Positions 6,625 to 58,173 of a DNA stretch of 64,000 bases are shown here, in pieces. A program made the translations under genes and the position numbers. The stretch is from positions 49,661 to 113,660 of IMG/VR virus record IMGVR_UViG_3300037478_000520, one strand, 5' to 3'. Every line of letters starts with the position of its first letter. Positions within the stretch are counted from its first letter, which is position 1. The notes under the pieces were generated by a model that worked only from the letters and a program-made list of their open reading frames with translations, had not been told where the DNA came from and did no database searches. This DNA comes from a virus.

Positions 6625-6811
6625 AACCCTGCAAAGAGTCTGAAAAGCCAATCGGTCAAACCGCGATGGACTGTCCGCATTGCGGGGCTAACCCCGCATC
6701 CCATCCAGCACCGCGCACAGCATCGCAATCGCGACGATCAGCGTTGCGAGATCGATAGCGTCGATCATTGTTCTGGCCTGTCTGCCACCCCCGGATGTGG
6801 GCGACGTCTGA

Positions 6812-7003
6812 TTCGCGAGAGGTCCGGTGGCGCGAAAACCCCGGGGACCGCTCGCAAACTGGCTAAGAATGCGGGGATATTAGCGAAATCCGATGGTCGT
6901 CAGCCCAAAGCAGCTTCCGTGGTAAACGTCCTGTAGCGCGTAGCGACAGGCACTCGCAAACCGACTTGCAAGCGCGTGGGATCTTTGACAATCTAGCGGA
7001 CCT
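6812..7003 (+). promoter_or_regulatory. CRISPR leader of array 1
   Basis: 6812-6859 matches 43804-43851 (47/48) and 6966-6997 is identical to 43959-43990 (32 nt). The blocks lie at nearly the same distance from the first repeat of each array (192 vs 193 nt). Confidence 0.85.
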
Positions 7004-20624: not shown

Positions 20625-21179
20625 TCAATCCTTGCCGGATTCGGCTTCGGCCTTTTCGATCTCTACGTAGAGGCGATCTGCGCCCCAACGCTTGTCGACC
20701 TTGACGCCCGCCTTCTCCGCCATCTCCCGGAGTTCGTCCAACTCGGACTTGTCCTCTGTGGACTCCTCCTCTGGAGGAACTTCGGGCACCAGCTCCGCCT
20801 TTGGCTCCGTTTCCAGCTTCGGCGGCGGTGAAGGCGGCTGCACGGTCGACTTCTCCGCCATCTCCCGGAGTTCGTCCAACTCGGACTTGTCCTCTGTGGA
20901 CTCCTCCTCTGGAGGAACTTCGGGCACCAGCTCCGCCTTTGGCTCCGTTTCCAGCTTCGGCGGCGGTGAAGGCGGCTGCACGGTCGACTTCTCGATGGAC
21001 GGCTTGGGCGGTTCAAGCGGCAAGCCTCCAGGTAGTTGCTTGCGCAACTCGAGAAGCCGCAACTCGTACCCGTGCGCCTGCTCCTGCATGAGGCGCCGGT
21101 GCTCGGACATGGGGATCGACGATGGCGTGGGAGGCGCATTTCCTACCCCCACGCCATGTCGGAATGAAACGCGACCCAT
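20625..21179 (-). CDS. Pro/Glu-rich protein downstream of the capsid gene
   Basis: C-terminal ELREMAEKAGVKVDKRWG..RL motif; contains an internal 46-aa duplication. Confidence 0.65.
   Translation of the reverse strand: MGRVSFRHGVGVGNAPPTPSSIPMSEHRRLMQEQAHGYELRLLELRKQLPGGLPLEPPKPSIEKSTVQPPSPPPKLETEPKAELVPEVPPEEESTEDKSELDELREMAEKSTVQPPSPPPKLETEPKAELVPEVPPEEESTEDKSELDELREMAEKAGVKVDKRWGADRLYVEIEKAEAESGKD
20712..20993. repeat. Perfect 138-bp tandem duplication
   Basis: Unit starting CTTCTCCGCCATCTCC at 20712 and 20850. Confidence 0.9.
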
Positions 21180-23765: not shown

Positions 23766-23965
23766 TGGACGGATCTCTCCGATGGCCGTTTGCGAACGAC
23801 GCAAACGTTCCTAGAAGGCGCCTTAAGTTCGGTACTGAACGGACTTGGGCGACTATGAAATGGGAGCCACGCTACTTGGCGGGCGGATGCTTACTATCGC
23901 GGAATTCTTTGCATGCGCGGCAGTGGCAGTTTGACATCGGTTCCAGGTGAACGAAGCGACCGTCT

Positions 23966-25508: not shown

Positions 25509-27086
25509 CTACCGTCGCCTCGTTCTAACGCCGTTCCCGCCGAACACCACAACGTTGCTCGTGCCCGTCCGCTGCGCTGTGCGTCCTGCGCCCGGAGCCA
25601 GCGAGCCCGCCAGAGTACGTTTGGTTAGACCATCGAACCCGCTTACGTAGGCGTCGACCTGGTCGTCAATCGGGTCTCGCAGCCCCGTGAACGCTTGCAA
25701 CTCGTCAACGAAGGCGTCTGCCCATTCCATGTTGCGGGGACGTCCGTTCTTGTCAAGCCACACACAATCGTCCGACGTGTCCGGGACGTAGATCGTGTAA
25801 GCGGGTTTCGACTCCGCACCGTCAATCGAAACCACGCCGTTCCAGGCATCGGCCGCGTCGTGGGAACGAGTCAGCTTGTCCCGCCCGCGGGTGTTGACCA
25901 TCACCAGCGGCACGCCCTTCGTGTTCATGAAGTTCACTGACCCCTTTTCAGGGCCCGAACCGTACATCCACATGTTGCCTCGACGTGCTCTGAATCGTTC
26001 GCGCAGGATGATCGAGAACGTTGGCGCGTCAATCTGCTTGCGGTCCACGTTGACCACAAACACCTCACGCTTCGCCGTGACCCACATTTCCACGCAGACC
26101 GACCAGTCACTCGAGGTCCTCTCGGAGTAAGCAAGGTCGACCCCGTAACCAACGATGTACCCGTACTTGGGGAGTGCCTCCGGCCGGTAGTACCGCGGCG
26201 AGCCAAACACCGCCCCGCCCCGTGGTCGCGGCATGCCCTGATACAGCGAGGCAAAGTTCCACGGGTTGTGGTGCTGGCGCTTCTCTAAGCGCTCAAGCGA
26301 GTGCTTCGCTGGCCACAGCGGCTTTCCAGGCTCCCGGTTGTCGTTCGCCGGCTGGTTGTCGCCGTCCGAAATCGCTTTGAGGTTGACGTAGTCGAAGTCG
26401 CGTTCGCGCTGCAACCAGCCGGACGGATCGTCGACATGCCAGCGGGTCATCACCAGGATGACACTCGAGCCCTCGTGTAAGCGCGAGTCGCAGTCGCCGT
26501 CGTACCAGCCGCGGAACTTCTCACGCATGGTCTCGGACTCGGCGTCCTCACGCCCCTTCACGGGGTCGTCGATGACCGCCACACCAGTCAGGTCGTAGCC
26601 CGTCAACATGCCACCCACCGACGTCCAGCGGATGCCACCGCCCTCCGCCGTCTCCCACTTGTCCAGGTTGTCGAGAGTGAGTTCTAACCCGGCCTCCGCG
26701 GCGATTCGACGCGCCATCCGGGCGACTTCCTCAGCCCGCGTCTGCGAGTACGTGATGTACGCGAACTTCAGGTCCGGGTACTTCAACAGCCACATCACTA
26801 TGGCATGCAGAATGGCGATGGTTTTCCCGTGCTGGGGCGGTGTCGCTACACAGCTTCGCAGACTTCCTTCAGGCGCTTTCTCTAGGATGTCAATGACGTC
26901 TTTGAGGTGAGTTGGGGCCTCCATCCTCGGGCTTACCCTCGGGATGAAGTCCATCAAGCTCTCCGTCCATGTCGGACGCTTCGGTTTCGATGACTTCGTC
27001 GCCTTCGCTTTCGCCCGGGCCAATTGCTCGTGCATCCAGTCCTTGGATACCGAGTACTGCGGACGCGACTTCAAGGAATCGGACAT
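25509..27086 (-). CDS. terL: Terminase large subunit
   Basis: PPQHGKT Walker A, IDDPVK, MTRWH.DD, LYQG.P, nuclease DDQVDA. Confidence 0.95.
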   Translation of the reverse strand: MSDSLKSRPQYSVSKDWMHEQLARAKAKATKSSKPKRPTWTESLMDFIPRVSPRMEAPTHLKDVIDILEKAPEGSLRSCVATPPQHGKTIAILHAIVMWLLKYPDLKFAYITYSQTRAEEVARMARRIAAEAGLELTLDNLDKWETAEGGGIRWTSVGGMLTGYDLTGVAVIDDPVKGREDAESETMREKFRGWYDGDCDSRLHEGSSVILVMTRWHVDDPSGWLQRERDFDYVNLKAISDGDNQPANDNREPGKPLWPAKHSLERLEKRQHHNPWNFASLYQGMPRPRGGAVFGSPRYYRPEALPKYGYIVGYGVDLAYSERTSSDWSVCVEMWVTAKREVFVVNVDRKQIDAPTFSIILRERFRARRGNMWMYGSGPEKGSVNFMNTKGVPLVMVNTRGRDKLTRSHDAADAWNGVVSIDGAESKPAYTIYVPDTSDDCVWLDKNGRPRNMEWADAFVDELQAFTGLRDPIDDQVDAYVSGFDGLTKRTLAGSLAPGAGRTAQRTGTSNVVVFGGNGVRTRRR

Positions 27087-30547: not shown

Positions 30548-31075
30548 ATGACATCTTACACTGTAATCATAACGTGGGCGCTCGCCGCTAGCGCTGGGAC
30601 CGGACAGACAACCGTCTGCTTTGAGGCCGCATCGCCCGACCCTGCCAAGGCGGCCGTGGAAGCGTGGCGGACCCCCGTCACGCACAGCGGTTCCGCTGTA
30701 ATCGAGTGGATGCCCGAAACCGCTGTAATCGCGTCCGTGCGGGCCGTGGCTGACGGGTGCGGCAAACATGCCCGCCCGTCCATCGCCAAGCCGCCCGAGG
30801 CGACAATCCTCGAGATTCCCGCTGCGACCTATCCCGCCACCGTCCACTACCGCACGCCCGACGGATCGACGGCCCGATGCGACGCGACAATCCTGTGCTC
30901 CGGGCGGGGCGACCATTGCGAGGCCGTGATAGACCCTGGCGCCTGCACATCGCACTGGGGACTTGAGCAATGTCTCGCCAGCACCGTGGCCGTACCCGGC
31001 GACGATTCCGCCGATACCCTGGGGTGCGACCCGGGCGCCCGGCTGCTCGATATCGACTGGACGGACCCGCTGTAA
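30548..31075 (+). CDS. Hypothetical early protein containing the protospacer of array 1 spacer 1
   Basis: ATG 30548 after AAGGGA; 30891-30927 matches spacer 7040-7076 at 36/37. Confidence 0.65.
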   Translation: MTSYTVIITWALAASAGTGQTTVCFEAASPDPAKAAVEAWRTPVTHSGSAVIEWMPETAVIASVRAVADGCGKHARPSIAKPPEATILEIPAATYPATVHYRTPDGSTARCDATILCSGRGDHCEAVIDPGACTSHWGLEQCLASTVAVPGDDSADTLGCDPGARLLDIDWTDPL

Positions 31076-33172: not shown

Positions 33173-34045
33173 ATGAACACGAACACCATGAACGCCTGCC
33201 AACGATGCAACGCCGAATCCAAAACCGATGTGTGCGGGCGATGCGCCGCCTACGTGAGCCAGATCGAGGCCAAGCGCGACCGATACGAGGAACGCGCCGA
33301 AAAGGCATCGGACGAGTCCGAATCCCGCATGAACGCGTTCTCACGCGTCACCGGGAACATCCCACTAGGACAGCCGATCCTAATCGGCCACCACAGCGAA
33401 AAGCGCCATCGGAAGGATATCGAACGCGCAAAAAACAACCTCAAAAAGAGCATGGAAGCGGCCGACAAGGCCAAGCACTACGCCAGCAAGGCCGAATCCT
33501 ACGGTACGCACGGCATCGCTAGTGACGACCCGGCTGCTGTCGCTCAGCTGAAGCAAAAGATAGCCGGGCTGGAGTCCAGTCGGGACGAAATGAAGCGCAT
33601 CAATGCGATTTTCCGCAAGGGCGGATGGGATGCAGTGAGCGCAGAAATTGGACCGGAGCAATTTCGAAAACTCATCAGCCGAGTCCAATACCAAACCGAA
33701 CAGCGCCCATTCCCTTCCTACGCGCTAGCCAACCTCGGTTCGGAGATCCGGCGCGTAAAGCAGCGGATCGCGGAGTTGGAGATCAAGGAAGCCTCGCGCC
33801 CCGTAGATCCAAATGATTCGGAGGAAACGATCATGGACGCCCCCGGCAAGTTCGTTGCGGCGGTTCACCACGACCTTGACCGCGTTGCCTTCGACTTCCC
33901 TGGGAAGCCCGCGGAAGCCGTTCGCACTGTCCTCAAGTCCGCCGGATTCCGCTGGGCGCCATCGCTCGGCATGTGGACTCGCAAGGACACTCCGAACGCG
34001 CGCGCAGCAACCCGCCGAATCGCCGAGCAAATCGCAGCACTCTAA
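33173..34045 (+). CDS. DUF3560 domain protein
   Basis: Signature IPLGQPILIGHHSEKRHRK, I.SDDP.A...L..K, Y.L.NL..EIRR...RI; C-terminal F.GKP...VR..LK..GFRWAPS..W. Confidence 0.88.
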   Translation: MNTNTMNACQRCNAESKTDVCGRCAAYVSQIEAKRDRYEERAEKASDESESRMNAFSRVTGNIPLGQPILIGHHSEKRHRKDIERAKNNLKKSMEAADKAKHYASKAESYGTHGIASDDPAAVAQLKQKIAGLESSRDEMKRINAIFRKGGWDAVSAEIGPEQFRKLISRVQYQTEQRPFPSYALANLGSEIRRVKQRIAELEIKEASRPVDPNDSEETIMDAPGKFVAAVHHDLDRVAFDFPGKPAEAVRTVLKSAGFRWAPSLGMWTRKDTPNARAATRRIAEQIAAL

Positions 34046-34075
34046 CCGCCCCGAAAGACACCGGAGAACCTATCC

Positions 34076-35320
34076 ATGCGCACCACCTACATAATCCCCT
34101 CAGAACGCGTGCCCGCCTTTGAAAAGCGGATCGGACAGCTCCGCCGCAAAGCGTCCAAGCTCGGGTGCCCCGAAATCACTTGCGAGCGCTTAGGCGATTA
34201 TTGGACCCGCTATGTCCTGGAGCACGGACTATGCCAGATCCACACCTATGTCGCGTTTGAATGCGGCACCGAAGCGCCGTCTTTCGACGGCTGGACCCTA
34301 GCCGCGAAGATCGAAAACGGGGCTTGGCTTGGCGATGCGGACGGCGCGATCGTCAAGCGAGTACCCGGCTCACCGGAACTCCCCGAAGCCTTCCGCGACC
34401 ACAGTGCGATCGATCCGCAGCACTGTGATCACTGTGCTGCATCCCGCCGGCGCAAAGACACATTCGTTGTCCGGCACGATACCGGCGCGTGCAAGCAGGT
34501 TGGACGCCAGTGCATCCGAGATTTCCTTGGGCACGACTCACCGGAGAAAATCGCAAGCCGGTATGACTTTTCCTTGGAGCTGCACGGTGAATTGTCCGAG
34601 TTTTGCAGCGGCGGGCAAGCCATCGAGCTTGCCGATTACGCGGAATTCCTCGCCTACGTGTTCAAGTGCATCCGAATGGGCGGGTTCACCTCCGCCAGTA
34701 CCGCCAAGCGCCGAAGCGAAACCGCTGCGACCGGATGCGAGGTCTTATCGACAGCCGATGAAGCCGCTAGCGCTATGCGCGCCCGCCCTCAATCACGCGG
34801 GTACTGGACCCCAGAGACAAAGGACTTCAAAGACGCACTAGCCGCCCTGGAATGGGCGCCAGCGTTGACCGAGCAGTCCAGCGACTTCGCGCAAAACATG
34901 CGCGCCGCGCTTGCCGGTGCTGGCGTCTCCATCCGGACGCAAGGCACCGTCGCCTACCTCGCGGAAGCCTACCGCAACCGTAACGGTCGCCCCGACCGTG
35001 CCGGCAAGGCCCCTAGCGCGCACGTAGGCGCCGTCAAATCGCGCGTTGAGCTCACCCTCACCCTGGACCACGAGACAGGCTGGGATGGCACCTACGGCTG
35101 GACCCGCCTCTACAAATTCAGCGATGTCGCCGGCAACGTGATCACCTGGAAAACCGGCAGCAAGTTTCGCGACGAATCCGGGGAGGCCATCGAAGTGGGC
35201 GACACCCTTGACGTCAAGGCGACAATCAAGGCCCACAGCAACTACCAGGGGACGGCCCAAACCGCCATTACTCGAGTCACGGCGACCTGCAGCGCGCGCA
35301 AGCCCGCGCGATGCGCTTGA
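34076..35320 (+). CDS. Conserved phage protein with Zn-binding motif and C-terminal OB-like fold
   Basis: CDHC...RRRKDTF, QVG..C..DFLG, HVG....R....., G.YG.....F.D..GN...W.T. Confidence 0.7.
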   Translation: MRTTYIIPSERVPAFEKRIGQLRRKASKLGCPEITCERLGDYWTRYVLEHGLCQIHTYVAFECGTEAPSFDGWTLAAKIENGAWLGDADGAIVKRVPGSPELPEAFRDHSAIDPQHCDHCAASRRRKDTFVVRHDTGACKQVGRQCIRDFLGHDSPEKIASRYDFSLELHGELSEFCSGGQAIELADYAEFLAYVFKCIRMGGFTSASTAKRRSETAATGCEVLSTADEAASAMRARPQSRGYWTPETKDFKDALAALEWAPALTEQSSDFAQNMRAALAGAGVSIRTQGTVAYLAEAYRNRNGRPDRAGKAPSAHVGAVKSRVELTLTLDHETGWDGTYGWTRLYKFSDVAGNVITWKTGSKFRDESGEAIEVGDTLDVKATIKAHSNYQGTAQTAITRVTATCSARKPARCA

Positions 35321-37003: not shown

Positions 37004-37689
37004 GCGCGCGGTGCGACCAGTGGGACGTCGACACGGTGCCCGCGCGCCGCTGCAACCAGTCGGGGGTCAACGTCCGGCTACCATGCCCGGTCGGGCGCCC
37101 GGACGCCACTGCGTGCTACTGCGACGACCACGGGGGCGAAATCCGCGCCCGTCGCGAGGCCGAACGGGATTGGAATTATCTGGCGCCGGAATCCGTTGGT
37201 GACGCGGGCGCGGTCCATGCCGCGGGATGCGCGCAACTGACCACGATCAACGCCTACCTGGTGATCCGTCAGACTCCGCCGCCGCAAGGCTCGGTTTGGC
37301 TCGCGTGGCTGGGCCTCGGATCGCTGCTTACGCCCGTTGGCCGGCCCGGCGCCGTCCCTAGCCGACGTGCGGGGCAAAAGCACCGGCGCGCTCACAGTCC
37401 GGGCGTCGCTCACGTGACCGGCGTCCGGAGCTTTGATTCACGAGCCGAAGCCGTATTGGCTGGCATCGGCGCTTGGGCCGAACGCTTGAACGCTGACGTC
37501 GCAACCATTCGACGCGCGCGCGGAGGAACCCTCGCATGGGGCGTGCCGGTCGAGCCGCTGCTCTCACCGATCATGGTAGAGGTGGCACCCGACCAAAACG
37601 CGTGGGATGTGGCGATCCAACAGCCTCGTGTCGCTGGGGTTGGGCTGGGGCGGATCACGGGCCTTCGCGCGAGTGGAGAAGCGTTGTAA
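37000..37689 (+). CDS. Hypothetical protein
   Basis: GTGA-coupled to the upstream gene. Confidence 0.55.
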   Translation: MSARCDQWDVDTVPARRCNQSGVNVRLPCPVGRPDATACYCDDHGGEIRARREAERDWNYLAPESVGDAGAVHAAGCAQLTTINAYLVIRQTPPPQGSVWLAWLGLGSLLTPVGRPGAVPSRRAGQKHRRAHSPGVAHVTGVRSFDSRAEAVLAGIGAWAERLNADVATIRRARGGTLAWGVPVEPLLSPIMVEVAPDQNAWDVAIQQPRVAGVGLGRITGLRASGEAL

Positions 37690-37780
37690 GGAGTCGAAAA
37701 CTGGTGAAATTCAGTTTTGCCCGAGGCACGCCTGTTTTTCCCACGGCTCATCCGGCTGTGTCAGCGCGAAAGGCAACACC

Positions 37781-37975
37781 ATGATCCGCACCCTCCTACT
37801 CACTCTCGCCACGGTCGCCGCCCTGGCTGCCCTTCACGGCGCGCCCGAGCCCGCGTGCGCCAAGGGTCGTTGCACCCGCATGAAGCCATGGTGCCCGCCG
37901 TTCCGCGAGCCCTTGTGCATCTGCACTGACCCCGTTAGACCAAGCTCCTGCAGTTGGGAATGCGTGGCACTATGA
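37781..37975 (+). CDS. Small secreted Cys-rich peptide
   Basis: Signal peptide MIRTLLLTLATVAALAA followed by 7 Cys. Confidence 0.55.
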   Translation: MIRTLLLTLATVAALAALHGAPEPACAKGRCTRMKPWCPPFREPLCICTDPVRPSSCSWECVAL

Positions 37976-38193
37976 CGACGAATATGGACACCGGCATGAT
38001 AACAACGACTCGAAAAAAAGGGCGCCCGAAAGAGCCCTACCCCGCCGACAAGCGAATCCATGTCCGGTGTCAGACCGCGCAGCTCGCGGAGATCCACCGC
38101 CGAGCGTCCGACGCTGGTATGACATTCTCTGAATACGTGCTGGCGTGCTGCCTTGCCGGCTGGGATCCAGAGCGCAGCGCTAGCGATGCGTGA
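37972..38193 (+). CDS. Ribbon-helix-helix DNA-binding protein
   Basis: KGRP...DKRIHVR......I..RA...GMT.SEYV. Confidence 0.7.
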   Translation: MTTNMDTGMITTTRKKGRPKEPYPADKRIHVRCQTAQLAEIHRRASDAGMTFSEYVLACCLAGWDPERSASDA

Positions 38194-38220
38194 TTCAGAA
38201 AAAAAATCACGCGGACCGCA

Positions 38221-38272
38221 TTTTTTGTGCACCCGAGCAGTTGACAGAGCGGACGGCGTGATCTAGTTTCTC
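38221..38272 (+). promoter_or_regulatory. Early promoter/operator copy 5 (heads the operon ending in the Cas effector)
   Basis: Upstream A-tract AGAAAAAAAATCACGC, TTTTTTGTGCACCC, TTGACA (38241), 17 nt, TAGTTT (38264). Confidence 0.78.
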
Positions 38273-38317
38273 GGAGTGAGGGACGGACCCTTAACCCGGA
38301 CGGACCGGGGCGAAAGA

Positions 38318-38995
38318 ATGGATGGACAGATGAGCAAAGTTGAAATTCTCGCAGCGTGTGACGCAATCCGCACCCGTTTCGCTGGGCGCGCAAAGCTTCG
38401 AGATCTCGCCAGCCGCGACGCGATCGCGCGCGCCGAACTGCAGCGCCGGCTGGGCCTGATCGACGACGCGACATTCGCCGGGCTGGAGCGGGCTGCACTT
38501 CGGGTTGCGGCGACCGGTGGAAAATCCGGCTGGTTTGCTTTCAATCGCCTCGCAGAGATTCGCGAGAATCGCGCGAAGGCGAAGGCTCGCCCGGCAGATC
38601 GCAAGCCTGGGCATGTGCAGTCAGTGATCGTCGATCGGCGGTTTCGCGAGGCCCTAGCCGCTGCTGGGATCCGCGCGACGACTCACGGACACGAAGACGT
38701 CTTCGTGTCCGTGCCGGTGGGCGCCGAAGGCGCTATCAGCGAGACCAGCACAATTTGGCCGAACCAGCTGGGGCTGCCGAATTCGTACAAATACCCGGTC
38801 ACGTGCAGCACGCACACCTGGCTAATCAGCCCCGCGGTCCTGCGCCCCGAGGTGCGCGCGCTGAACGCCCGGTGCCCGTCCGGGATCGTCTATCTATCGG
38901 CGACCGTGCGCGTCCGGCAAGGCCGCGGAACGTCACTCGTGGTCGAGACTCTGTCCGCTCGCCAGGCGCTTCGTGCGCTCCGGGTGGCAGCATGA
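38318..38995 (+). CDS. Hypothetical protein
   Basis: First gene after promoter copy 5. Confidence 0.6.
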   Translation: MDGQMSKVEILAACDAIRTRFAGRAKLRDLASRDAIARAELQRRLGLIDDATFAGLERAALRVAATGGKSGWFAFNRLAEIRENRAKAKARPADRKPGHVQSVIVDRRFREALAAAGIRATTHGHEDVFVSVPVGAEGAISETSTIWPNQLGLPNSYKYPVTCSTHTWLISPAVLRPEVRALNARCPSGIVYLSATVRVRQGRGTSLVVETLSARQALRALRVAA

Positions 38996-39930
38996 GCCTC
39001 GCTGCTATCACGCGCGTGGTCGAGCTCGTCGATCGCGGCTCACCACGCGACGGGCGGCGATTGCGCAGGCTACTATCCGCCGTCGACCGTGCGCCGGTCC
39101 CCGTGCGACCACGGCTGTTGGCCTCGATTGCTGTGGTCGAGCCTGCGCTATCCTCCCTGGTCGCGCAGCACCCCGGACCGCTGTGCCCCGCGTACCCGAG
39201 GGTGGACGCGGCAGTCGCCGCGCGGCTGGCGCTGGGCGAGCGACCCGCAGAGGTTCTCCGCGGCCTCACCCCCCGCGAGGCGCACGAGGCGCTGTCGACC
39301 GGGTGTTCGAGCGCTGTCGCGTGGATTCTGCGCGACTGCGCTGGGACTGAGGGCGTCCGGAGCGTGCCAGTCGCCAGGTGGCTCGTGGCGTGCCTCGCCG
39401 ACCCTGCGCGCGCCGAAGCGCTCGACCGCACGCGCGAGGAGCACACTCCCGCGGGCGTGGTCGAGGGGCGGTACACCGATCGTGTCGACGAGATCACGCC
39501 GGCGGATCTCGCCAAGGGCGACCGGACCGGGGTGGCCAGCGCATTCCGCGCTGCGTCCGCGCGAATCTACGCGAAATGGTGCGCGAGCCACGAGCGCGAC
39601 GAGACTCCGCTTGCCGCCGTTCCGAGCTGGTGGAGGCCAGTCAGGTGCGCGCGGCTGTGCCTGTCGCGCGCGAGCTTGATCCGAGAAGGTCGCGAGCTGC
39701 GGCACTGCGTAGGCACGTACGCACCGCATGTCTCACGCGGCAAGACCGTGATTGTCTCGATCGCGATTCGCGACGGGGCCGGGCTCGTGCACCGGTCGAC
39801 GGTGGACATCGATCGCCGCACCGCGGCAGTCGTGTCGCACCGAGGGGCCAGTAATTGTGAGCCACCGGCATTGAACAACCGCGCTATCGCGGTGCTCGCG
39901 CGGCGCTGGAAGGAAAATTGTCATGGATGA
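38992..39930 (+). CDS. PcfJ-like domain protein
   Basis: L..EG..L.HCVG.Y...V..G...I.SI......T..I......RG..N signature. Confidence 0.78.
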   Translation: MSLAAITRVVELVDRGSPRDGRRLRRLLSAVDRAPVPVRPRLLASIAVVEPALSSLVAQHPGPLCPAYPRVDAAVAARLALGERPAEVLRGLTPREAHEALSTGCSSAVAWILRDCAGTEGVRSVPVARWLVACLADPARAEALDRTREEHTPAGVVEGRYTDRVDEITPADLAKGDRTGVASAFRAASARIYAKWCASHERDETPLAAVPSWWRPVRCARLCLSRASLIREGRELRHCVGTYAPHVSRGKTVIVSIAIRDGAGLVHRSTVDIDRRTAAVVSHRGASNCEPPALNNRAIAVLARRWKENCHG

Positions 39931-40766
39931 TCGAAAATCAATCGACGCTGAATTGCACACCCTCCGAAGCTGCATCCGCGGCTGCGAGGACAGCCGGCAG
40001 CGCAGTGAAATGGAGGGTGCGCGGTTCCAAATTTACGCGGCCTTCGAGCACCGCGATCCCGACGCGGCGCGACGCTGGGCGAAGGCGCTTCGGGCCGCGC
40101 TGATCGCCGTCGACCACGACGAGCTGCGCGGCATGGGGCTCGATGCGCTGGGCGTGATCGAGAGCGCGATCGGGGACGGCGGAGGTGCGCTGTGAGCCGT
40201 CCCCTTCCCCGCGAGCGGGGCGTATCCTCGGCGGAGTTCGAACTCCTGCGTGGTGAGGCAATCGCGTACGGGGAGGGCCGGGGTGGCGATGTCGACCCGA
40301 CGACTCCAGATGCGATCCGCCAAACTCTCGCCGAGCTGGGCGGTCGGCCCCCGAGCGAGGCGTCAATCGTCGAAACCTCCTCCGCGCTACGCACCGAGGT
40401 ACTAGCCCACCTGGCGAGAGTGGAGCAGAACCGCCAAGCGCGTGTGGAGGCAGCGCGTCATCGGTCCGCCCGCACAGGGGACGGTGAGCTAGTCGAAGGC
40501 TCACTGTCGGTCGCAGAGCCCACGCCGCAGGATGCCCCGCGGTCGTGGGCAGAAGTGCTTTGCGCGCGCCGAGGTGCGCTATGAGCCCGCACGACTATGA
40601 GCGCGCCAGCGTCATGGATCGCCAGGAACCGACCGAGTACCGGCAGACAAAGGAAAAACCATTGGTGAAATTGATCTGCTGTGTGGTGTTGGCGGCTTTG
40701 GTCTCCGCTGCCATCTGCCTGGCCGCTTGGTATCTGGCGTTCTTACACCTCGCGCCATCGCTGTAG
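39923..40766 (+). CDS. Three small coupled hypothetical genes (39923-40195, 40192-40584, 40581-40766; the last has a TM helix)
   Basis: GGAGGTGCGCT(G/A)TGA junctions. Confidence 0.55.
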
Positions 40767-40782
40767 CCGAAAGCTTTACAAA

Positions 40783-41409
40783 ATGACCACAACAAAAAAA
40801 CTACTCGGTGAGATCACCCACGCTGGCAAGTATGTCGAGAACCGAGCGCCGAAACTGCTCGGCCCCGACCTGATCCGTAACCAGGGGCTGGTTAGGACCA
40901 TCATCCAGGACTACCGCGCTAACCCGCGCTTTCCGTTCGCGCCGGGCTTCGTGGCCACGGCGGTCTACCGCTACGGCTGCTGGACTCGCACGATCGCGTC
41001 CAAGACCCTGCGACGCGTGGCCCGCGTGCCCTACTGGCTCGGTTACCTGTGGACGCGCGACGTGTACGGGATCGAGCTGTTCGACTCCGCGCGCATCGGG
41101 AGGCGGCTCAACATCGCGCACCAGAGCGGCATCGTGATCCACTTGCACGCGGAGATCGGGGACGACTGCGTGATCCGGCACTGCGTGACGTTCGGCGAGG
41201 GCACGGGCCCGAGCGCGGAAGGCCCGGTCATCGGTGATCGCGTGAGCTTCGGGCCTGGGACGGTTGTGATGGGGGCCGTCGTGATCGGCGATGACGTGAG
41301 CGTCGGGCCAAACTGCACGATCTCGCGGGACGTTCCAGCGTGCACAGCGGTAGTCGCCGGGCGGCCAACCGTGGTCCCGAAGATCCGTCACACGAGGCCC
41401 GAGCCGTGA
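40783..41409 (+). CDS. Serine O-acetyltransferase-like left-handed beta-helix acyltransferase (CysE/WcaB family)
   Basis: YGIEL...ARIG..L.IAH.SGIVIH..AEIGDDC.IRH.VTFG...PVIGD.V..G.G......V.IGD.V.VG.N.....DVP. Confidence 0.85.
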   Translation: MTTTKKLLGEITHAGKYVENRAPKLLGPDLIRNQGLVRTIIQDYRANPRFPFAPGFVATAVYRYGCWTRTIASKTLRRVARVPYWLGYLWTRDVYGIELFDSARIGRRLNIAHQSGIVIHLHAEIGDDCVIRHCVTFGEGTGPSAEGPVIGDRVSFGPGTVVMGAVVIGDDVSVGPNCTISRDVPACTAVVAGRPTVVPKIRHTRPEP

Positions 41410-41717
41410 AAGGCCCTTGGTACATCACGCTGGCCGCCGTCGAGCACTGGATGCGCGTCCGCCGCTACCCCGACGACGACGCGCACTTTGAGCGCGCCGA
41501 GGACGAGCTTTTCGGGTTGATCCAAGGCGCCAAGCTTCGCCAGACTGACGCTGAAGGCCGGCAGCTGTGGCGCATAGGCCGACCGCACAAAGCCCGCATG
41601 ATCGTCGACACACGCAAGCTGGAACGCGTGGACGGACGCGACTTGCCGCGCCTGATCTGGGTTGGTCAGGGCCACCCGCCACACTGGTGCTGGACGAAAG
41701 AAGGAAACATTGACTAG
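41406..41717 (+). CDS. Hypothetical protein, possibly RelE/ParE-like fold
   Basis: GTGA-coupled; WYITLAAV...RQLWRIG...RMIV...LIWVG spacing is reminiscent of RelE folds (weak). Confidence 0.45.
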   Translation: MKGPWYITLAAVEHWMRVRRYPDDDAHFERAEDELFGLIQGAKLRQTDAEGRQLWRIGRPHKARMIVDTRKLERVDGRDLPRLIWVGQGHPPHWCWTKEGNID

Positions 41718-41828
41718 AGCGCCGATCAGAGAAGGGGAGATCGCCACAGTCACCAAACGACTGCGCGTCACACCCGAGCAAGCCGAGGAGCTGGAGCGGG
41801 CTCCAGCGCAAAAGAAGGAAACTTGAAA

Positions 41829-43928
41829 ATGCAAACCATCGCCTACAAATACCGGATCCTTCGCGTGCTCTCCGACGAGCGGGCTATCATGGACGAGATC
41901 CGAGCCGGTCACCGGCTCTACAACGATCTAGTCGCCATCGAGCGCAAGCGACGGGCCGCGACCGAGGCGTTCTGGGCTGAGCGTGGTGGGTACCAGGATC
42001 TTCTGGCCGAGCGTGGGAAGGCCATCGAATTCGCCGAGTCGATTCCCAAGGGCGATGATCGGCGCGAGGAGAAGCGCGCGGCATGGCGCGCTGTGAACGA
42101 TCTGCGTAAGCAGATCTGGGAGTGCGAGAAGGACGCCATCAAAGCGTTCCACGCGAGCGATCCCGTGAAGATCCGCAGGATGGAACGCGCCAAGGAACTC
42201 CGTGCTGCTGCGAAGGCGCGCAAGGAAAAGCTAACGGCGAAAAAGATCGCGGACATTCTTGACGAGGAACCAGATTGCCTGACCGAGCGGGATAAGCTGC
42301 GCAAAACGCTTATCCAGAGCTACAAGGATCGCGGCGTCGGGATCAGTGCGAAAACCGTGGCTGGCAAGCTCGCAGAGGCATTCCCTGGTCCGACGGAACA
42401 CGTCGAGCAGGAGGCGAAAGCCGCGGCGTACACAGCCTATCGCGAACGCGGTGTTACGCCCGGTACGCGCGCGGTGGTTGCGGACGCGCATGAGCGCTCG
42501 CTTGAGATGCTCGAGTGGCGAGAGCAACGCTTCAAGCCGTGGTCCGGCCACGGCGCATTCGGAACGCAAATCCAAGGAGGCGCGACGTACGGCGACCTAT
42601 GCAGTGGCAGCCACACGTTTGCTCAACTGGAGTGCCTCGACCGCGGCAACTACACTCCTGGATCTCGCCGGCATGGCAGTCTGCACAGGCTACGCGTGCG
42701 CCTTGGGTCGGACGGTCAGAAGCCCGTCTGGGCGGAATTCGAAGCGAGCCTACTTCGCAGCGGCCCGCGTACGTCCGCGTCGACATCGGATCCGATCCCA
42801 CCCGATGCGCGCGTAATGCAAGTGCGCGTGGTGGTCGACCGAATCGGCGTGCACGACCACTGGTACGTCTGTTTCACGGCTCAGGTTCCGGACGCCGTGC
42901 ACTTGCGGGATGAGCCGCCGACGAAGGGCGGGACGGTGGCCATCGACATTGGGTGGCGCAGTTTGGACGGTGGTTTGCGGGTCGGATACTTCCACGACGG
43001 GCAAGAGCACGGCCCCATCGACCTGCCAACGATCCGCAAGCGACTCAAGCCGCACGGGAAGCGAGGCGCCAAGGCGAAGTGGTTCGAAGTGCGCGACGTG
43101 TTCGATCACGCGAGTCACATCCAAGGGATCCTGTCTCAGGAATTCTACTCCGAGGACAAGGATGCGGCCGTGTACGGCGGCGCCTTGCATGACCTAGCGG
43201 TCTGGATCGACTCGCGCGGGCGCGATGCTCTCCCCGAGTGGCTCTCCGAATCTACCGCCGGGATCCGACAGTGGCGTTCGCAAGCTCGGCTCAACGGACT
43301 AGTTGAACGATGGCTTCACAACCGTTTCGAGGGCGACGGTCAAATCGTCGCTCGCATGGATCAGTGGCGCAAAGACTATAGGCATTTGCATGAATGGTGC
43401 GCGCGGGAGAGAAACCGCGCCCTGAACGCGCGCGACGAGCACTACAGGCAGACCGCGCTACGCCTCGCGCGCGCGTACGAAACGATCGTGATCAACGGCG
43501 CCGACCTTGCAACCACGCGCCGCCGCAAACGGAAAGAGAAGGCCGCCCCCGAGCTGGTCATGGTCGAGGATGCGAAGCGTTCGCAGGCCTTCGACGCCGC
43601 GCCGGGGAAGCTCCGGGAAGAGATCGTAAAGGCGGCAAAGAAGTACGGCCGGACACTGGTCAAATTGCCGTTCGAAACCGAGAGGTGTCACGTTTGCGGG
43701 GAGGTGTGTGAATTTGACCGTGCCCGCTATCTCTCACACAAGTGCGAGCACGAGCCATGCACAGCACAGTGGGACCAGGACGCCAACGCGTGCCTGAATG
43801 CCCTTCGCGAGTGGTCCGGTGGCGCGAAAACCCCGGGGACCGCTCGCAAACGCGACAAGCCCGCGAAGTCACGTGAGAAAACGACGGGGCGCGGCGACGC
43901 AATAGGCGCTGTGAGCGATTCGCTGTAG
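41829..43928 (+). CDS. cas12m: Compact type V CRISPR effector, V-U1/Cas12m-like (TnpB-derived RuvC protein), 699 aa
   Basis: ATG 41829 after AAGGA. Motifs YKY, GHRLYNDLVAIER, RF..W.G.G..G.QIQGG, R.R.GS...P.W, RIG....WYV.FT, RuvC-I VAIDIGWR...GLRV, QWRS.ARL, RuvC-II IVINGADL, AAPG.LR, Zn finger CHVC/CEHEPC, RuvC-III WDQDANA..N. A CRISPR array follows immediately. Confidence 0.85.
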   Translation: MQTIAYKYRILRVLSDERAIMDEIRAGHRLYNDLVAIERKRRAATEAFWAERGGYQDLLAERGKAIEFAESIPKGDDRREEKRAAWRAVNDLRKQIWECEKDAIKAFHASDPVKIRRMERAKELRAAAKARKEKLTAKKIADILDEEPDCLTERDKLRKTLIQSYKDRGVGISAKTVAGKLAEAFPGPTEHVEQEAKAAAYTAYRERGVTPGTRAVVADAHERSLEMLEWREQRFKPWSGHGAFGTQIQGGATYGDLCSGSHTFAQLECLDRGNYTPGSRRHGSLHRLRVRLGSDGQKPVWAEFEASLLRSGPRTSASTSDPIPPDARVMQVRVVVDRIGVHDHWYVCFTAQVPDAVHLRDEPPTKGGTVAIDIGWRSLDGGLRVGYFHDGQEHGPIDLPTIRKRLKPHGKRGAKAKWFEVRDVFDHASHIQGILSQEFYSEDKDAAVYGGALHDLAVWIDSRGRDALPEWLSESTAGIRQWRSQARLNGLVERWLHNRFEGDGQIVARMDQWRKDYRHLHEWCARERNRALNARDEHYRQTALRLARAYETIVINGADLATTRRRKRKEKAAPELVMVEDAKRSQAFDAAPGKLREEIVKAAKKYGRTLVKLPFETERCHVCGEVCEFDRARYLSHKCEHEPCTAQWDQDANACLNALREWSGGAKTPGTARKRDKPAKSREKTTGRGDAIGAVSDSL

Positions 43929-43996
43929 ACCTGGGATCAGGAGCGCTCGCAAAACGGTTTGCAAGCGCGTGGGATCTTTGACAATCTAGCCGAGCT
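43804..43996 (+). promoter_or_regulatory. CRISPR leader of array 2 (5' part overlaps the last ~41 codons of the effector)
   Basis: Same motifs and spacing as the leader of array 1. Confidence 0.85.
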
Positions 43997-44915
43997 GTAT
44001 CAGAAGGCCCTCGGCGCCTTTGAAGCCGAGACCAGATGGCGTTGTGCATCTGGTTGTCGAGCCGCCGGGTATCAGAAGGCCCTCGGCGCCTTTGAAGCCG
44101 AGACCGCGACTGGCTTCATTCGGTTACTTTTTTCGATACTCGTATCAGAAGGCCCTCGGCGCCTTTGAAGCCGAGACACGCCCATGTCCGAGCCGCAGCG
44201 AAGCGCGTCGCCTCGTATCAGAAGGCCCTCGGCGCCTTTGAAGCCGAGACAGGGGGACCGCTCACCCGCAAGAGCGCTTTCAGCCGGCGGTATCACAAGG
44301 CCCTCGGCGCCTTTGAAGCCGAGACCCGCACGTCCGGATCGGCGAGCACCGGCGGTACGTGAGTATCAGAAGGCCCTCGGCGCCTTTGAAGCCGAGACTC
44401 TTGTTCTTGCATCTCTCCAAGAATCGCCCTATGGGGGTCGCACAAGGCCCTCGGCGCCTTTGAAGCCGAGACGCGCGCTGGAATGGTGGCGCTGCGCATC
44501 GGCGCGATCGTCGCACAAGGCCCTCGGCGCCTTTGAAGCCGAGACTAACACCCGGGCGCTGTTACCAAACACCCCAAGGCAGGGGTCGCACAAGGCCCTC
44601 GGCGCCTTTGAAGCCGAGACCGCGCGGCGCCGAAGCCGAAGGCGAAGCCACTCGCGCGCGTGTCGCACAAGGCCCTCGGCGCCTTTGAAGCCGAGACACG
44701 GGAGTCATCTTCGTGACCGGAACGAATACCCAGTCGCACAAGGCCCTCGGCGCCTTTGAAGCCGAGACTGTTTGGCGACGGCGCGAACTCCAAGTCGACC
44801 ATCCTCGGTATCAGAAGGCCCTCGGCGCCTTTGAAGCCGAGACACTGATCACGACCTACGCGAGGTGGTCGCCGACGTGGTATCACAAGGCCCTCGGCGC
44901 CTTTGAAGCTGAGAT
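43997..44915 (+). CRISPR. CRISPR array 2: 13 repeats, 12 spacers of 35-41 nt
   Basis: Repeats GT(AT/CG)CA(G/C)AAGGCCCTCGGCGCCTTTGAAGCCGAGAC at 43997, 44069, 44142, 44215, 44290, 44363, 44437, 44510, 44585, 44662, 44733, 44808. Degenerate terminal repeat at 44880 (...GCTGAGAT). Confidence 0.98.
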
Positions 44916-45169
44916 CAAGGCGTAGCCCGTTCCCTACCTAGCTTTCCCCGAGGACCTCCATCAGCTCCGCGTCAGAGAACAAGTGCGGAAGCGTGCGCAT
45001 CAAATGGTTCTTCGTCGTGCAATAGCGTCCATTACCAAAGTCCACGAGCATCCCGCGGACGAGTAGCCATTCACGCGCGCGCTCTGTGCTCCATGATTCA
45101 CCGGTCTTGTCCGACATCCACAGCGCGAAATTCGCGGTGGTCATGATCGGAGTGAGCTTGACCTTGACA

Positions 45170-45883
45170 TTACCTGCCACTGAATTTCCTCCCTACCTCA
45201 TCCCATAATCTCGCGGCGCTGAGGTGCACCTTGCGCGCTTCACCCATGACCTCGCTGACCAATTCCTTGTGGCGCTGCTTGCTTCCTTCCATCGCAATCC
45301 AGCGGTAGATCCGCTCGTGCGTCGGGCCTTCTGTCTGTCCCGACTTGCGGGCTAGTTCCTCGAGTTGTTGGGCCACCGGAATCAGTGGGACAACGGCGAA
45401 CAATTCGAACCAGGGCGCGTACACGGACGCCCGCTTGCGGAGTTCCTCAGGGGAGTTCCCAGCCACTGTGTACCGACTTCCCGCTGACCCGTAGGCAGCC
45501 TCGAGGACCGCCGCCAGATAGGCGTCTCGGCGCCGCACAGCGTCGAGTTGCCGCCCGGTCTCCGAGTAGCGTGTGTACAACGGGTCATCCGCTGGCTCCC
45601 AATTGAACGTGGGCTTTTCCGCATTGTGCTGCGCGCTGAATCGCCGCTCGCGCAACGCCTCGCTGTATCCGCAATTCTCGCACCACTCGCCAGCGATCGG
45701 CTCTTTGCACCCGATACAGGTCCCCGCGGGTTGCGATTTCGGGCGCTTTTGCGGCGTGTACGACGGCGGTACGAAATACTTCTCCGCCCGGTCCAGTGCA
45801 GGACCCATTGATGACGAGCCCTCGAACACGGCCTGACCCGGCCCCAAGTACCACCGCAGATCCGTGTTGAGTTCGCGCTTCAC
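45170..45883 (-). CDS. Hypothetical Zn-ribbon protein
   Basis: CIGC...CENC; coupled to neighbours 44938-45180 and 45880-46362. Confidence 0.55.
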   Translation of the reverse strand: MKRELNTDLRWYLGPGQAVFEGSSSMGPALDRAEKYFVPPSYTPQKRPKSQPAGTCIGCKEPIAGEWCENCGYSEALRERRFSAQHNAEKPTFNWEPADDPLYTRYSETGRQLDAVRRRDAYLAAVLEAAYGSAGSRYTVAGNSPEELRKRASVYAPWFELFAVVPLIPVAQQLEELARKSGQTEGPTHERIYRWIAMEGSKQRHKELVSEVMGEARKVHLSAARLWDEVGRKFSGR

Positions 45884-46514
45884 CCGCGCTTGCCAGCCTT
45901 CTTCAGCGACTTGGTTCGTTCTCTCTTGTTAGGGACTCGCTCCTTTCGTGCCGACATGGACGGCGCCTTAGCACGCACGACGGGCACGATCTCCACGGCA
46001 CGCACGGCCTTAAGAACTCCACCATCGAGCGTCCGAACGATCACCGCTCCTGATTCGTCGTAGCCGATCACCTCGCCTTTTTGGCTTGGGTCAGATTTCC
46101 ATGTGACGGACTGCCCGGGGTCGAGCGGCTTTTGTGGCTGCAGGGCAGCGAGGCGCGACTCGTGATAACGTCGCATGTACCCGACATCGCCGGTTGTCGT
46201 CGCGAGCGTGGCCGCGTGCAGCCAGCCAACGAAGTCGCCAGCATTCATGGACGCGATGGTGATGTTGGCGATCGTTGGCGCGGGACCAGATGCTGTATTC
46301 GCCTGCGCTTGCGCCTGTCCCGTCTCGGTAGTCGCGGTGCTCGTTGTCGTGTCGTCGTCCATTTATTCACCCTTCGCCGAACGAAGGTGCTCAATCACCT
46401 CGCCGATTTCCGCCGTCTGGAACTTGACGGATAATGCTGTCGCTTCCGCAAGCTTAGCTTTCGCGATCGGTGCTGCTGTCGCGGTGCTCGTTGTCGTGTC
46501 CACTACTTTATTAT

Positions 46515-55644: not shown

Positions 55645-58173
55645 TCACCGGTCACTCCAGTGTTGATCGTTCACATCTTCAGGGTCGTGGTGGTTGTCGA
55701 GGTTGGCGATTCGGATGTAGCTACCTTGCCATGCCAGATTGCGAACTCCTGTCTCACCATCTCGTTGCTTCGCAACATTGATCTCAACGATGCCCTTATT
55801 CTTGCTTTCCTGGCCATAGTAATACTCGTCTCGATATACGAGCATGATAGCATCCGCATCCTGTTCGATGGCTCCGCTGTTATGCACTACCATTCCTGAC
55901 GCCACGAAGTTGTTAGGGCCAGGCACTTGTAGGTCTGCCACACGCACTGGCTTATCCTGCTTGCGCACCTCCAGAACGCAACCCCAGCCGACGCCTGGGG
56001 TTGTCATGTACGGCGAACGCGCAATGGTATCGAGCCCTGGCGTCCACTTCACGATGGCTTCCATGTCGCGCTTGCAGATCAGCTTGTGTGTGCCGTCGGT
56101 GCGACGCTGGAATCGCCGCGCCGTAGACAGTTCCGCCGCAAGGTCGACGAAGATTTGAGGAGCAGGGTCAATCCGCGCAGGGTCGGGTTCGGCCAGAACA
56201 CCAAACCGCCCAGGGGCGTTCACGATGGGTGACATCCTCGCGCTGTCGACGGTGCTCGCACGAACAGTCCACAGTCCATCATGGAGGCTAACCGTCGACC
56301 TCACACCAACTGTAAGCAGAAGCCACGCGACTTGACGTGCCAACAACTCGTTGACCGTTGAGTATTTGGCATCCCCATTCGTGACTGTGCCGTCTGATTC
56401 CCAAAGCCCGCGTAGCAGATCGATGTGTGTCTCGTCGCTGCTCCCAAGGTATGTTGTCGGAACGGACTTGTCGTGCGCCGTCTTGCCTTCCAGCCCCAGC
56501 TCCCTGATCCAGCCCATCAACGGGTTCGGACTGCACCCGGACTCCACACCGTTCGACAAGTACGCGTCTACCACGCACTCGCACTTCTGGTTTTTCCGAG
56601 CCTTCACATCCACGCCGAACGCCGCCACAGCGGCTCTCACGTCTGCATCCAGCTCATCGCGGTAGATCAGCGAAGGCGTTCCCGATAGCCCGCCGTTGCC
56701 AAGAAGCCACCCAAGAAGGCGCGCATGCGGTAACGCGCCACGGTTGGCGTGAGGGATTCGATTGGGTGCTGCCACAACGTCGCGGCCGGGCTGCAAGTGC
56801 CGAGCTTGCTTGTATCCCGTCCCTGTTAGGACGAGATGCCGAGGCGTCACCCGGAAGCGCCCAAACTGGGTCACGACCTCGATCACGCTGTTGTGACGCT
56901 TCGGAACGTAGGAGCATGGATTTTCGGTCACCCCCGAGGCCGTCGAAGAGATCACGCTCGACGGGCGCGATCCAAGTTGAACGGGTCCGCCCGCGGTGTA
57001 GACCCATTCATCGATCGGCAGACATTCCCTCATATCAGAGATCATCGGGCGTTTGTCTGCGCGCGACTCGACAGCTCTATTGAGTTGCGACAAACACAGG
57101 ACCGGTACATCACACTCATGCGCTAGCGCCATGAGCGACCTCGAGAAGTAGGATACCTCTTGCTCGCGAACTTGGAATTTGCGACTGCTCCCAAGCAACT
57201 GCAAATAGTCGACCAGTACGACGCCGAGTTTTCCGCCGTTCTTTCTGCGAAGCCTCTTCGCGTTCCTGACCACCGACTCAACGTGCTCACCAGGTCGATC
57301 CGCAAAGTACAGCGGCAACTTGGAAATGTCGTTCGCTGACTCGCTTAGCCGGCTCCACTCCTCATTGGTGAATTTTGCCGTCTTGACCTTGTTGAAGAGT
57401 ACGTTGGCCTCTGACGCCATCATGCGGTGTCCCCATTGCCGACGACTCATCTCGAGACTGACGACAAACCCAGGAAGGCGCGATTTTTTGACAATACCAA
57501 GTGTCAGATCCTTCGCAATCGTGCTCTTCCCGCTCCCGGGGCGTCCGGCGATCACGTAGATTTTCCCAGGCTCAAACCCTGAAAGCGTTTCGTCTATATC
57601 TGGGAACCCCGACATGTGCCCAGCTAGACCGCCGCCACGGTCAGCGTGGGCAACAATCCCCTGGAAAGCTTCTGCGATAACCTCTGAGCACGTGTACACG
57701 TCTCCGTGATTGCCTTGGTTTGCCTCCAGAGATTCGCCTAACAAACTCTCCGTGTGTCCGAGAAAGTCGTCCAACGATCCGTAGTCGCCATACCCAAGTG
57801 AGGCGGTTTTATGGCAGGCCGAAATAACGCTACGGACGATCGACTTCTCGCGCACGATCTTGGCATGAGACAAGATGTTAGAGATGATAGGAATGGTGCT
57901 CGTAAGCTCTAACAGGTAATCGTCACCACCAACGGCAGTAAGATAGCTTTTTGTTATCAACCTTTCACGCAGCGTCACCGCATCGACCGGAGAATTTACC
58001 GATCGCAACTCCAACATGCACTCGAAGATCTTTGAGTGCGCATCGCTGTAGAAGTCGCTAGCCACGACCGGCACATCATCGATTTCGTCGAAAGCCTCAC
58101 TCTCGAGAAGAAGCCCGCCGAGCACAGATCGCTCGGCTGACAGGTCGTGCGGTGGCTGGCGACTGACGGTCAT
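55645..58173 (-). CDS. dnaB: Replicative DNA helicase with intein
   Basis: PPHDL.AE.SVLG, AGRPGSGKST, SLEM, VDYLQL, LSQLNR, SDMRE/SGAIEQDAD, KQRDGETG. Confidence 0.96.
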   Translation of the reverse strand: MTVSRQPPHDLSAERSVLGGLLLESEAFDEIDDVPVVASDFYSDAHSKIFECMLELRSVNSPVDAVTLRERLITKSYLTAVGGDDYLLELTSTIPIISNILSHAKIVREKSIVRSVISACHKTASLGYGDYGSLDDFLGHTESLLGESLEANQGNHGDVYTCSEVIAEAFQGIVAHADRGGGLAGHMSGFPDIDETLSGFEPGKIYVIAGRPGSGKSTIAKDLTLGIVKKSRLPGFVVSLEMSRRQWGHRMMASEANVLFNKVKTAKFTNEEWSRLSESANDISKLPLYFADRPGEHVESVVRNAKRLRRKNGGKLGVVLVDYLQLLGSSRKFQVREQEVSYFSRSLMALAHECDVPVLCLSQLNRAVESRADKRPMISDMRECLPIDEWVYTAGGPVQLGSRPSSVISSTASGVTENPCSYVPKRHNSVIEVVTQFGRFRVTPRHLVLTGTGYKQARHLQPGRDVVAAPNRIPHANRGALPHARLLGWLLGNGGLSGTPSLIYRDELDADVRAAVAAFGVDVKARKNQKCECVVDAYLSNGVESGCSPNPLMGWIRELGLEGKTAHDKSVPTTYLGSSDETHIDLLRGLWESDGTVTNGDAKYSTVNELLARQVAWLLLTVGVRSTVSLHDGLWTVRASTVDSARMSPIVNAPGRFGVLAEPDPARIDPAPQIFVDLAAELSTARRFQRRTDGTHKLICKRDMEAIVKWTPGLDTIARSPYMTTPGVGWGCVLEVRKQDKPVRVADLQVPGPNNFVASGMVVHNSGAIEQDADAIMLVYRDEYYYGQESKNKGIVEINVAKQRDGETGVRNLAWQGSYIRIANLDNHHDPEDVNDQHWSDR
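55879..57024 (-). mobile_element. Intein (382 aa) with LAGLIDADG homing endonuclease
   Basis: Starts CLPIDEWV, block B T.RH, LLGWLLGNG and LLRGLWESDG, ends NFVASGMVVHN followed by Ser. Confidence 0.93.

Follow-up and report, generated by a model that had tools for sequence, protein, structure and literature searches.

The 64,000-nucleotide (nt) window analyzed here is the stretch of DNA at bases 49661-113660 of a 113,660-bp linear virus record in IMG/VR (IMGVR_UViG_3300037478_000520), and positions refer to this window unless the record is named. The window contains a compact CRISPR (clusters of regularly interspaced short palindromic repeats) locus on the plus strand, in which a cas12m gene is followed by a repeat array, array C (Table 1). 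The ATG of cas12m at position 41829 lies 8 nt downstream of an AGGA-type ribosome-binding site. A preliminary description of this DNA, made from the letters of the sequence, had reported a 699-amino-acid (aa) RuvC/zinc-finger protein directly followed by a 13-repeat array, and both features are as described. In the protein, alignments locate the RuvC residues D373 (RuvC-I; 42945-42947), N556 (RuvC-II; 43494-43496), and D651 (RuvC-III; 43779-43781), together with the cysteines of a TNB zinc finger (C620, C623, C639, and C644), while the coordinates and copy number of the array are correct.

We compared the 699-aa protein with family models and with known structures. Pfam gives a sub-threshold Cas12f1-like TNB match in the C-terminal part, and the NCBIfam models IS607_TnpB and guided_TnpB score 30.2 and 17.9 bits against cut-offs of 350 and 100, respectively. 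As a single sequence, the protein matches Cas12m entries in the PDB (23vw, 2.6e-36; GoCas12m 8pm4, 8.7e-13). For a profile built from 45 homologues, the matches to four Cas12m structures span the full length, with E-values of 4e-165 (23vw), 1.8e-90 (Cas12m2 8hio), 5.4e-89 (GoCas12m 8pm4), and 2.9e-75, and the same profile matches TnpB, Cas12f, Fanzor, and other Cas12 proteins over the C-terminal RuvC/TNB part only, at 6e-15 or weaker. The AlphaFold2 model of the effector has a predicted local distance difference test score of 89.7 and a predicted template modeling (TM) score of 0.83. In Foldseek, its top four matches are GoCas12m and Cas12m2 structures (8pm4 and 8hhl among them; E-values of 2e-25 to 2e-20, TM-scores up to 0.70), and the matches to Cas12f and TnpB, at about 1e-9, rank below Cas12m. 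The sequence profile and the predicted fold thus confirm the protein as a Cas12m (type V-M, formerly V-U1), the assignment made in the preliminary description, and do not place it with the TnpB proteins of insertion sequences. The homologous family comprises 2,672 cluster representatives at E <= 1e-3, and the identity of the effector to most relatives is 24-29%. The effector is found on several contigs with one to three substitutions each, and because the reading frame is undisrupted in all variants, we take it to be maintained in nature.

The RuvC triad of the effector, D-N-D, departs from the D-E-D triad that is present in 112 of 157 family representatives and in 52 of 62 viral relatives. 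The D-N-D triad is shared with its three nearest relatives, and the next six carry S, T, or R at the RuvC-II position. These ten sequences without the RuvC-II glutamate are 658-701 aa long and form one clade on the tree, with a support of 99; a single loss of the glutamate, at the root of this long-form subclade, is probable. The D-N-D triad with a TNB zinc finger is a site type within the range of the family (HDD, HEK, NED, DND, and DED), and it is listed for Cas12m clade 4 (PMC10442227). All Cas12m proteins assayed so far, with D-E-D, H-D-D, or N-D-D triads, bind DNA, and none cleaves it (PMC11013384). Because the RuvC-II glutamate is lost in the subclade and the characterized Cas12m proteins bind without cutting, binding-only action is the best inference for this effector.

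Array C has a repeat spacing of 71-77 nt and spacers of 35-41 nt, and its terminal repeat is degenerate, as is expected at the trailer end if transcription runs in the plus direction. The preliminary description had presented a mini system with this one array; array C is real, but two further arrays, A and B, and an orphan repeat had been missed (Table 1). The three arrays together hold 27 spacers for one effector, and no second effector is found anywhere in the 113,660-bp record. A leader of about 60 nt is near-identical upstream of arrays A, B, and C, and a remnant of the 3' end of cas12m, about 125 nt long and with about 51% protein identity to residues 657-693, precedes both array A and array B. 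Since arrays A and B are each preceded by a gene remnant and a leader, they arose by duplication of a unit comprising the gene end, the leader, and the array. Array A also has its own terminator-like T-run. The leader of array C contains a palindrome with a GCAAA..TTTGC core (43944-43968, plus strand), with equivalents in the leaders of arrays A and B, which may serve as a protein-binding site or form an RNA hairpin; the leader hairpin is thermodynamically unexceptional.

The 36-nt repeat folds into a 6-bp CTCGGC/GCCGAG stem, the stem named in the preliminary description, which is the minimum-free-energy fold of the repeat, although in free energy alone it does not stand out (z = -1.3). To this fold we added a covariation set of 23 distinct repeats from this phage and its IMG/VR relatives. 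In this set the stem is 92.7% paired and shows compensatory changes at six of six pairs, whereas slid controls are only about 40% paired. The repeat stem of array A carries such a change, from G-C to A-U. The AAGGC/GCCTT pairing upstream, proposed earlier as a pseudoknot, stands in part: it is 55.7% paired and two of its five pairs covary. Both helices lie where they do in the Cas12m2 scaffold, with which the repeats also share the invariant terminal AC, the conserved A(-2)C(-1); in that scaffold, repeat bases 1-7 are disordered (PMC10442227). No recognizable trans-activating CRISPR RNA (tracrRNA) had been noted in the window, and we likewise find no anti-repeat in window 41000-45300 and no Rfam match, which is consistent, at the level of sequence, with a system that uses CRISPR RNA (crRNA) only.

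Table 1. Coordinates of the cas12m locus, the additional arrays, and the phage genes. Positions are those of the window unless marked as record positions.
Feature	Position	Strand	Evidence or description
cas12m gene, 699 aa	41829-43928	+	Open reading frame (ORF) without internal stops
Leader of array C	43929-43996	+	Conserved block, short palindrome, TTGACA 12 nt before the first repeat
CRISPR array C	43997-44915	+	13 repeats of 36 nt, 12 spacers; 68 nt downstream of cas12m
cas12m 3'-end remnant and array B leader	6805-7003	+	Some 37 codons; 51% identity with residues 657-693
CRISPR array B	7004-7627	+	9 repeats, 8 spacers; within the minus-strand tail module, without a cas gene beside it
CRISPR array A	Record 42018-42560 (L074:2019-2561)	-	7 full repeats and 1 truncated; 7.1-7.6 kb upstream of the window
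Orphan repeat	Record 41521-41556 (L074:1522-1557)	+	Inverted orientation; about 500 nt beyond the array A trailer
Promoter-like element, copy 5	38225-38269	+	TTGTGCAC box, -35 TTGACA (38241-38246), 17-nt spacer, -10-like TAGTTT (38264-38269)
Hexapeptide-repeat transferase-like ORF	40681-41409	+	Pfam Hexapep, 5.9e-12
Small ORF	41406-41717	+	No family match
Small ORF	41662-41826	+	No family match
Tape measure	11563-13422	-	PHROG
Tail sheath	14460-15965	-	PHROG
Major head protein	21179-22414	-	PHROG
Head maturation protease	22467-23804	-	PHROG
Portal	23966-25255	-	PHROG
Terminase large subunit (TerL)	25509-27086	-	PHROG
DnaB-type helicase	55645-58173	-	PHROG
Ig-like fiber or decoration protein		-	PHROG

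The record is a genuine virus genome, that of a tailed phage of roughly 114 kb, and its completeness is estimated by CheckV at 82%. PHROG searches identify tailed-phage genes on the minus strand, including those for the capsid, portal, terminase, sheath, and tape measure, so that the system is phage-encoded, as had been proposed. TerL shares less than 30% identity with its counterpart in any cultured phage, and a single-protein scan of IMG/VR with TerL finds no close relative of the phage; the phage lineage is therefore undescribed. No DNA match to window 38001-46000 is found among the INPHARED phages. Array B is adjoined by a gene for a 712-aa protein (7652-9790, minus strand) with a GH5 cellulase-like domain (Pfam, 5e-11), which may be a tail-associated polysaccharide depolymerase and would then be a clue to the host surface. 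A plus-strand ORF (5563-6624) with weak vWA-domain matches lies within the minus-strand tail module, immediately upstream of the array B unit, and looks like an inserted cassette.

A conserved promoter-like element occurs in five copies on the plus strand (28653, 29145, 32751, 36632, and 38225), each with a TTGTGCAC box, a TTGACA-type -35 element, a 17-nt spacer, and a -10-like hexamer. A generic sigma-70 scan calls no promoter in 37500-45400, and the family was found only through its repeated motif. Upstream of cas12m, the starts and stops of three ORFs overlap or abut, the last stop lying 2 nt before the cas12m ATG, and no terminator is predicted between 38270 and array C. Because of this tight packing and the lack of a predicted terminator, it is plausible from the sequence that cas12m is expressed from promoter copy 5 and co-transcribed with the upstream ORFs. 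Early timing would follow from the sigma-70-like form of the element and from the non-structural neighbors. The leader and a gene remnant are retained at arrays A and B, and the leader unit therefore probably carries a promoter of its own. The promoter-like copies are flanked on both sides by TTGTGCAC(CC) boxes, which look like operators for a shared repressor, and an A-run/T-run hairpin precedes each copy. At the head of the plus-strand block (33173-35320, plus strand) lie a DUF3560/primase-like gene and a conserved PHROG of unassigned function.

Genes for spacer acquisition are absent from the record: as in the preliminary description, which considered the window, no Pfam match to cas1, cas2, or cas4 is found in six frames across all 113,660 bp. 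Array C varies between phage populations. A metagenome contig of 1,467 bp (L075) represents the same locus from another population, with flanks identical at 186 of 192 and 211 of 211 positions. Spacers C6-C12 are common to L075 and array C, and the five leader-proximal spacers differ; L075 also holds two extra spacers between C10 and C11, and its first spacer is the A1/B3 spacer. Since the leader-proximal spacers differ between phage variants, the array is turning over in nature, and new spacers enter somehow. The repeats of array C and of L075 are mosaics of two 5'-end variants, GTATCAG and GTCGCAC, arranged in blocks, and the GTCGCAC block matches the repeat type of array B; this block structure suggests recombination of spacer blocks between arrays, besides new acquisition. 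Among the arrays of the record, C6 and B6 are the same spacer, and B3 differs from A1 by a single indel. A 21-nt stretch is common to C5 and A2, with one position mismatched, indicating that these two spacers were taken from one target. The earlier proposal that host Cas1-Cas2 supplies new spacers finds no support, the repeat of these arrays being absent from 185,579 species-representative bacterial genomes and from other IMG/VR contigs. A repeat-like match in Rhizobium sp. BG4 pRPC1 was rejected as chance because it falls inside a protein-coding stretch where no repeat array can be seen.

Spacer B1, the leader-proximal spacer of array B, matches the phage itself at 36 of 37 positions (30891-30927, plus strand), inside an ORF without a family match (30548-31075). 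The one position that differs, 35 of the spacer, lies in an Ala codon and leaves it synonymous, which suggests that B1 came from a close relative of the phage; binding of the phage's own copy would depend on the protospacer-adjacent motif. Exact scans of IMG/VR for C6, the C5/A2 core, A4, and B1 give no protospacer, and a scan of the species-representative genomes for the C5/A2 core gives nothing. Likewise, blastn-short of all spacers against 63 viral loci, described below, and of the six L075-unique spacers against these loci and the phage itself, yields chance-length matches only, and tblastx of the spacers against the phage genome yields only noise. Two spacers can be read in frame as protein motifs. 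Spacer A4 (array A) reads, in frame and in sense, as LICGASTGGLLA, the patatin nucleophile-elbow motif, and its best PLSDB match (29/38, in frame) is to the motif region of a Bosea sp. AS-1 plasmid gene annotated "CBASS cGAMP-activated phospholipase" (CBASS, cyclic oligonucleotide-based antiphage signaling system). The reading of spacer B2 is a Walker A segment; this spacer matches an AAA ATPase of Rhizobium sp. SL42 at 29/31 and has weak Pfam matches to VapE-like, NACHT, and AAA_16. The blastn E-values of the A4 and B2 matches are 0.6-2, each at chance level when taken alone, and the two matches therefore serve as hypotheses, not findings.

We read the locus as a phage Cas12m with three arrays that carries out crRNA-guided binding of double-stranded DNA without cutting, most likely against competing mobile elements, and we consider this reading probable, though well short of assured. 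Cas12m would be translated as the last gene of a plus-strand non-structural operon, and the three arrays would supply precursor crRNA, each with an upstream unit of about 190 nt (the leader, preceded by the 3' end of cas12m or a remnant of it). By analogy with characterized Cas12m, the protein itself would trim the precursor to a crRNA with a repeat-derived 5' handle, formed by the stem and the pseudoknot, and a 3' guide, and no tracrRNA would take part. The ribonucleoprotein would then, as its characterized relatives do, bind double-stranded DNA flanked by a protospacer-adjacent motif (PAM) and block transcription or replication without cutting. Its most likely use would be against related phages, plasmids, and satellites in the infected cell. 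Several points weigh against this reading. The spacer searches of viral and plasmid databases envisaged in the preliminary description reveal no convincing external protospacer, those of IMG/VR (exact, for four spacers), of one metagenome, and of INPHARED and PLSDB (blastn) being empty or at chance level. The sole near-perfect spacer match is to the phage itself, with a 5' flank of CAA as compared with the TTN of characterized Cas12m. In addition, with the record 82% complete, about 18% of the genome is possibly missing, and adaptation genes could lie there.

An active nuclease that cuts its target, as most Cas12 enzymes do, would be compatible with the intact RuvC-I and RuvC-III aspartates and zinc finger, and cleavage by clade 3/4 enzymes is a speculation of Omura et al. 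(PMC10442227). However, the RuvC-II glutamate is replaced across the whole subclade, every Cas12m assayed, D-E-D forms included, fails to cleave (PMC11013384), and a near-perfect self-matching spacer would be hazardous for a cutting enzyme; we consider cleavage very improbable. Less probable still is that the locus is a relic, or a transposon-type TnpB beside an unrelated repeat region, without CRISPR function. The weak, C-terminal TnpB-type matches in Pfam and NCBIfam and the orphaned position of arrays A and B beside gene remnants would fit such an account, but it is at odds with the full-length Cas12m homology and fold, the intact ORF in all variants, the covarying repeat stem, and the turnover of leader-end spacers, and neither a TnpA nor a long guide-RNA region is seen.

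A binding-only Cas12m might, in place of acting on rival elements, silence host genes, such as those for a CapV-like patatin effector of CBASS or a P-loop/STAND ATPase, in counter-defense or host reprogramming. The patatin reading of A4 and the Walker A reading of B2, with their database matches, point in this direction, as does the absence of a patatin gene from the phage itself, and an effector that binds without cutting can keep chromosomal genes repressed while the host survives. Both DNA matches are nonetheless at chance level, and with about 33 spacers (record and L075) read in six frames, short motifs may arise by chance. Moreover, a 20-aa window around A4 has no Pfam match, and P-loop and patatin genes are also present on plasmids and phages, leaving this account unlikely in our judgment. 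A lower rank still is given to self-regulation, in which B1 would guide Cas12m to the phage's own ORF (30548-31075) and shut part of the plus-strand, early region once Cas12m has accumulated. The only B1 mismatch is PAM-distal, characterized Cas12m proteins read a heteroduplex of about 17-18 bp (PMC11013384, PMC10442227), B1 occupies the leader-proximal position, and binding without cutting makes self-targeting non-lethal. The synonymous mismatch, however, is that expected of a spacer from a close relative and not of selected self-pairing, the flank is CAA and not TTN, and only 1 of the 27 spacers is self-matching, which together make self-regulation distinctly improbable. We also put forward, tentatively and as a doubtful extension, that the non-cutting Cas12m is a programmable repressor of rivals, of host anti-phage genes (CapV-like patatin, STAND/AAA ATPase), and possibly of the phage's own early gene. 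If this were true, CRISPR interference would serve as a phage counter-defense and gene-timing device, drawing on three guide cassettes, each transcribed independently and updated in natural populations.

The favored reading, of a phage Cas12m that binds the DNA of competing elements, can be set beside known systems. The effector resembles the characterized Cas12m proteins (MmCas12m2, 8hhl/8hio; GoCas12m, 8pm4; 23vw; 23vu) in full-length sequence and fold homology, in the TNB zinc finger and non-canonical RuvC triad (D-N-D being listed for clade 4), and in the locus, which has a 36-nt repeat whose stem/pseudoknot handle ends in AC, an array just downstream, and a crRNA-only layout. It is longer, 699 aa as compared with 577-614 aa, and the alignment with 23vw and 8pm4 and the model place the extra residues in the N-terminal helical REC region, an insertion at 396-467, and a disordered C-terminal tail. 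Unlike the characterized bacterial systems, it is carried by a phage and has three arrays per effector. With TnpB of IS200/IS605 and IS607 it shares the RuvC/TNB core only, with a weak NCBIfam match; it differs in having a CRISPR array and Cas12m-typical REC and RuvC insertions, with no transposon context and no long omega-RNA. CasPhi (Cas12j), Caslambda, and the viral effectors of a landfill virome (PMC12607003) are likewise compact type V effectors with an array on a phage, without acquisition genes and with a presumed role in inter-element conflict, but CasPhi and Caslambda cut DNA, whereas the effector here belongs to a binding-only family.

Phage-borne Cas12m has precedent, and such systems are only just beginning to be reported. 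The landfill virome study, published in 2025, found viral effectors that cluster with Cas12m/V-U1 (PMC12607003), and MvCas12m of myxophage MV-1 was presented as the first phage Cas12m in a September 2026 preprint (bioRxiv 10.64898/2026.09.14.751636). A single-protein scan of IMG/VR with the Cas12m described here finds no close relative, and a profile scan finds 63 loci that encode relatives, 50 of which hold an array of similarly built 36-37-nt repeats, mostly just downstream of the gene; the one locus checked for neighbors adjoins a terminase. Viral and non-viral Cas12m members are interspersed on the tree. These 63 loci indicate that phage-borne Cas12m is widespread, which corrects the impression of a single curiosity left by the one preprint that describes such a system. 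Among INPHARED virus records, only Rctr197k (KX853510.1, 112435-113661, minus strand) has a homologue, at 29% identity and annotated "similar to transposase". One 152,857-bp IMG/VR record (IMGVR_UViG_3300032770_000005) carries genes for two distinct Cas12m relatives, separated by about 50 kb (loci L062 and L073); an array follows the L073 copy, and none is detected after the L062 copy, whose examined stretch ends at the gene.

Compared by description, MvCas12m and the system reported here are both phage-encoded, with an adjacent array, without cas1, cas2, or cas4 and without a tracrRNA, and with no protospacers found. MvCas12m has 610 aa, a D-E-D triad, and one array of 8 spacers, while the effector here has 699 aa, a D-N-D triad, and 3 arrays with 27 spacers; beyond that description, spacer turnover is documented here, as is a spacer match to the phage's own DNA. 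Among the well-studied Cas12 families, only Cas12m defends by binding instead of cutting, and a phage with 27 guides in three cassettes, whose guides are seen to turn over, is a natural test of how a virus uses a programmable repressor, whether to exclude kin, to silence satellites or plasmids, or to switch off host defense or its own genes. Tools for CRISPR interference or base editing may also profit from the long D-N-D subclade, a naturally nuclease-degenerate scaffold. What distinguishes this system from those known is membership in a long subclade without the RuvC-II glutamate, three arrays for one effector, spacer turnover, and a near-perfect match of one spacer to the phage itself.

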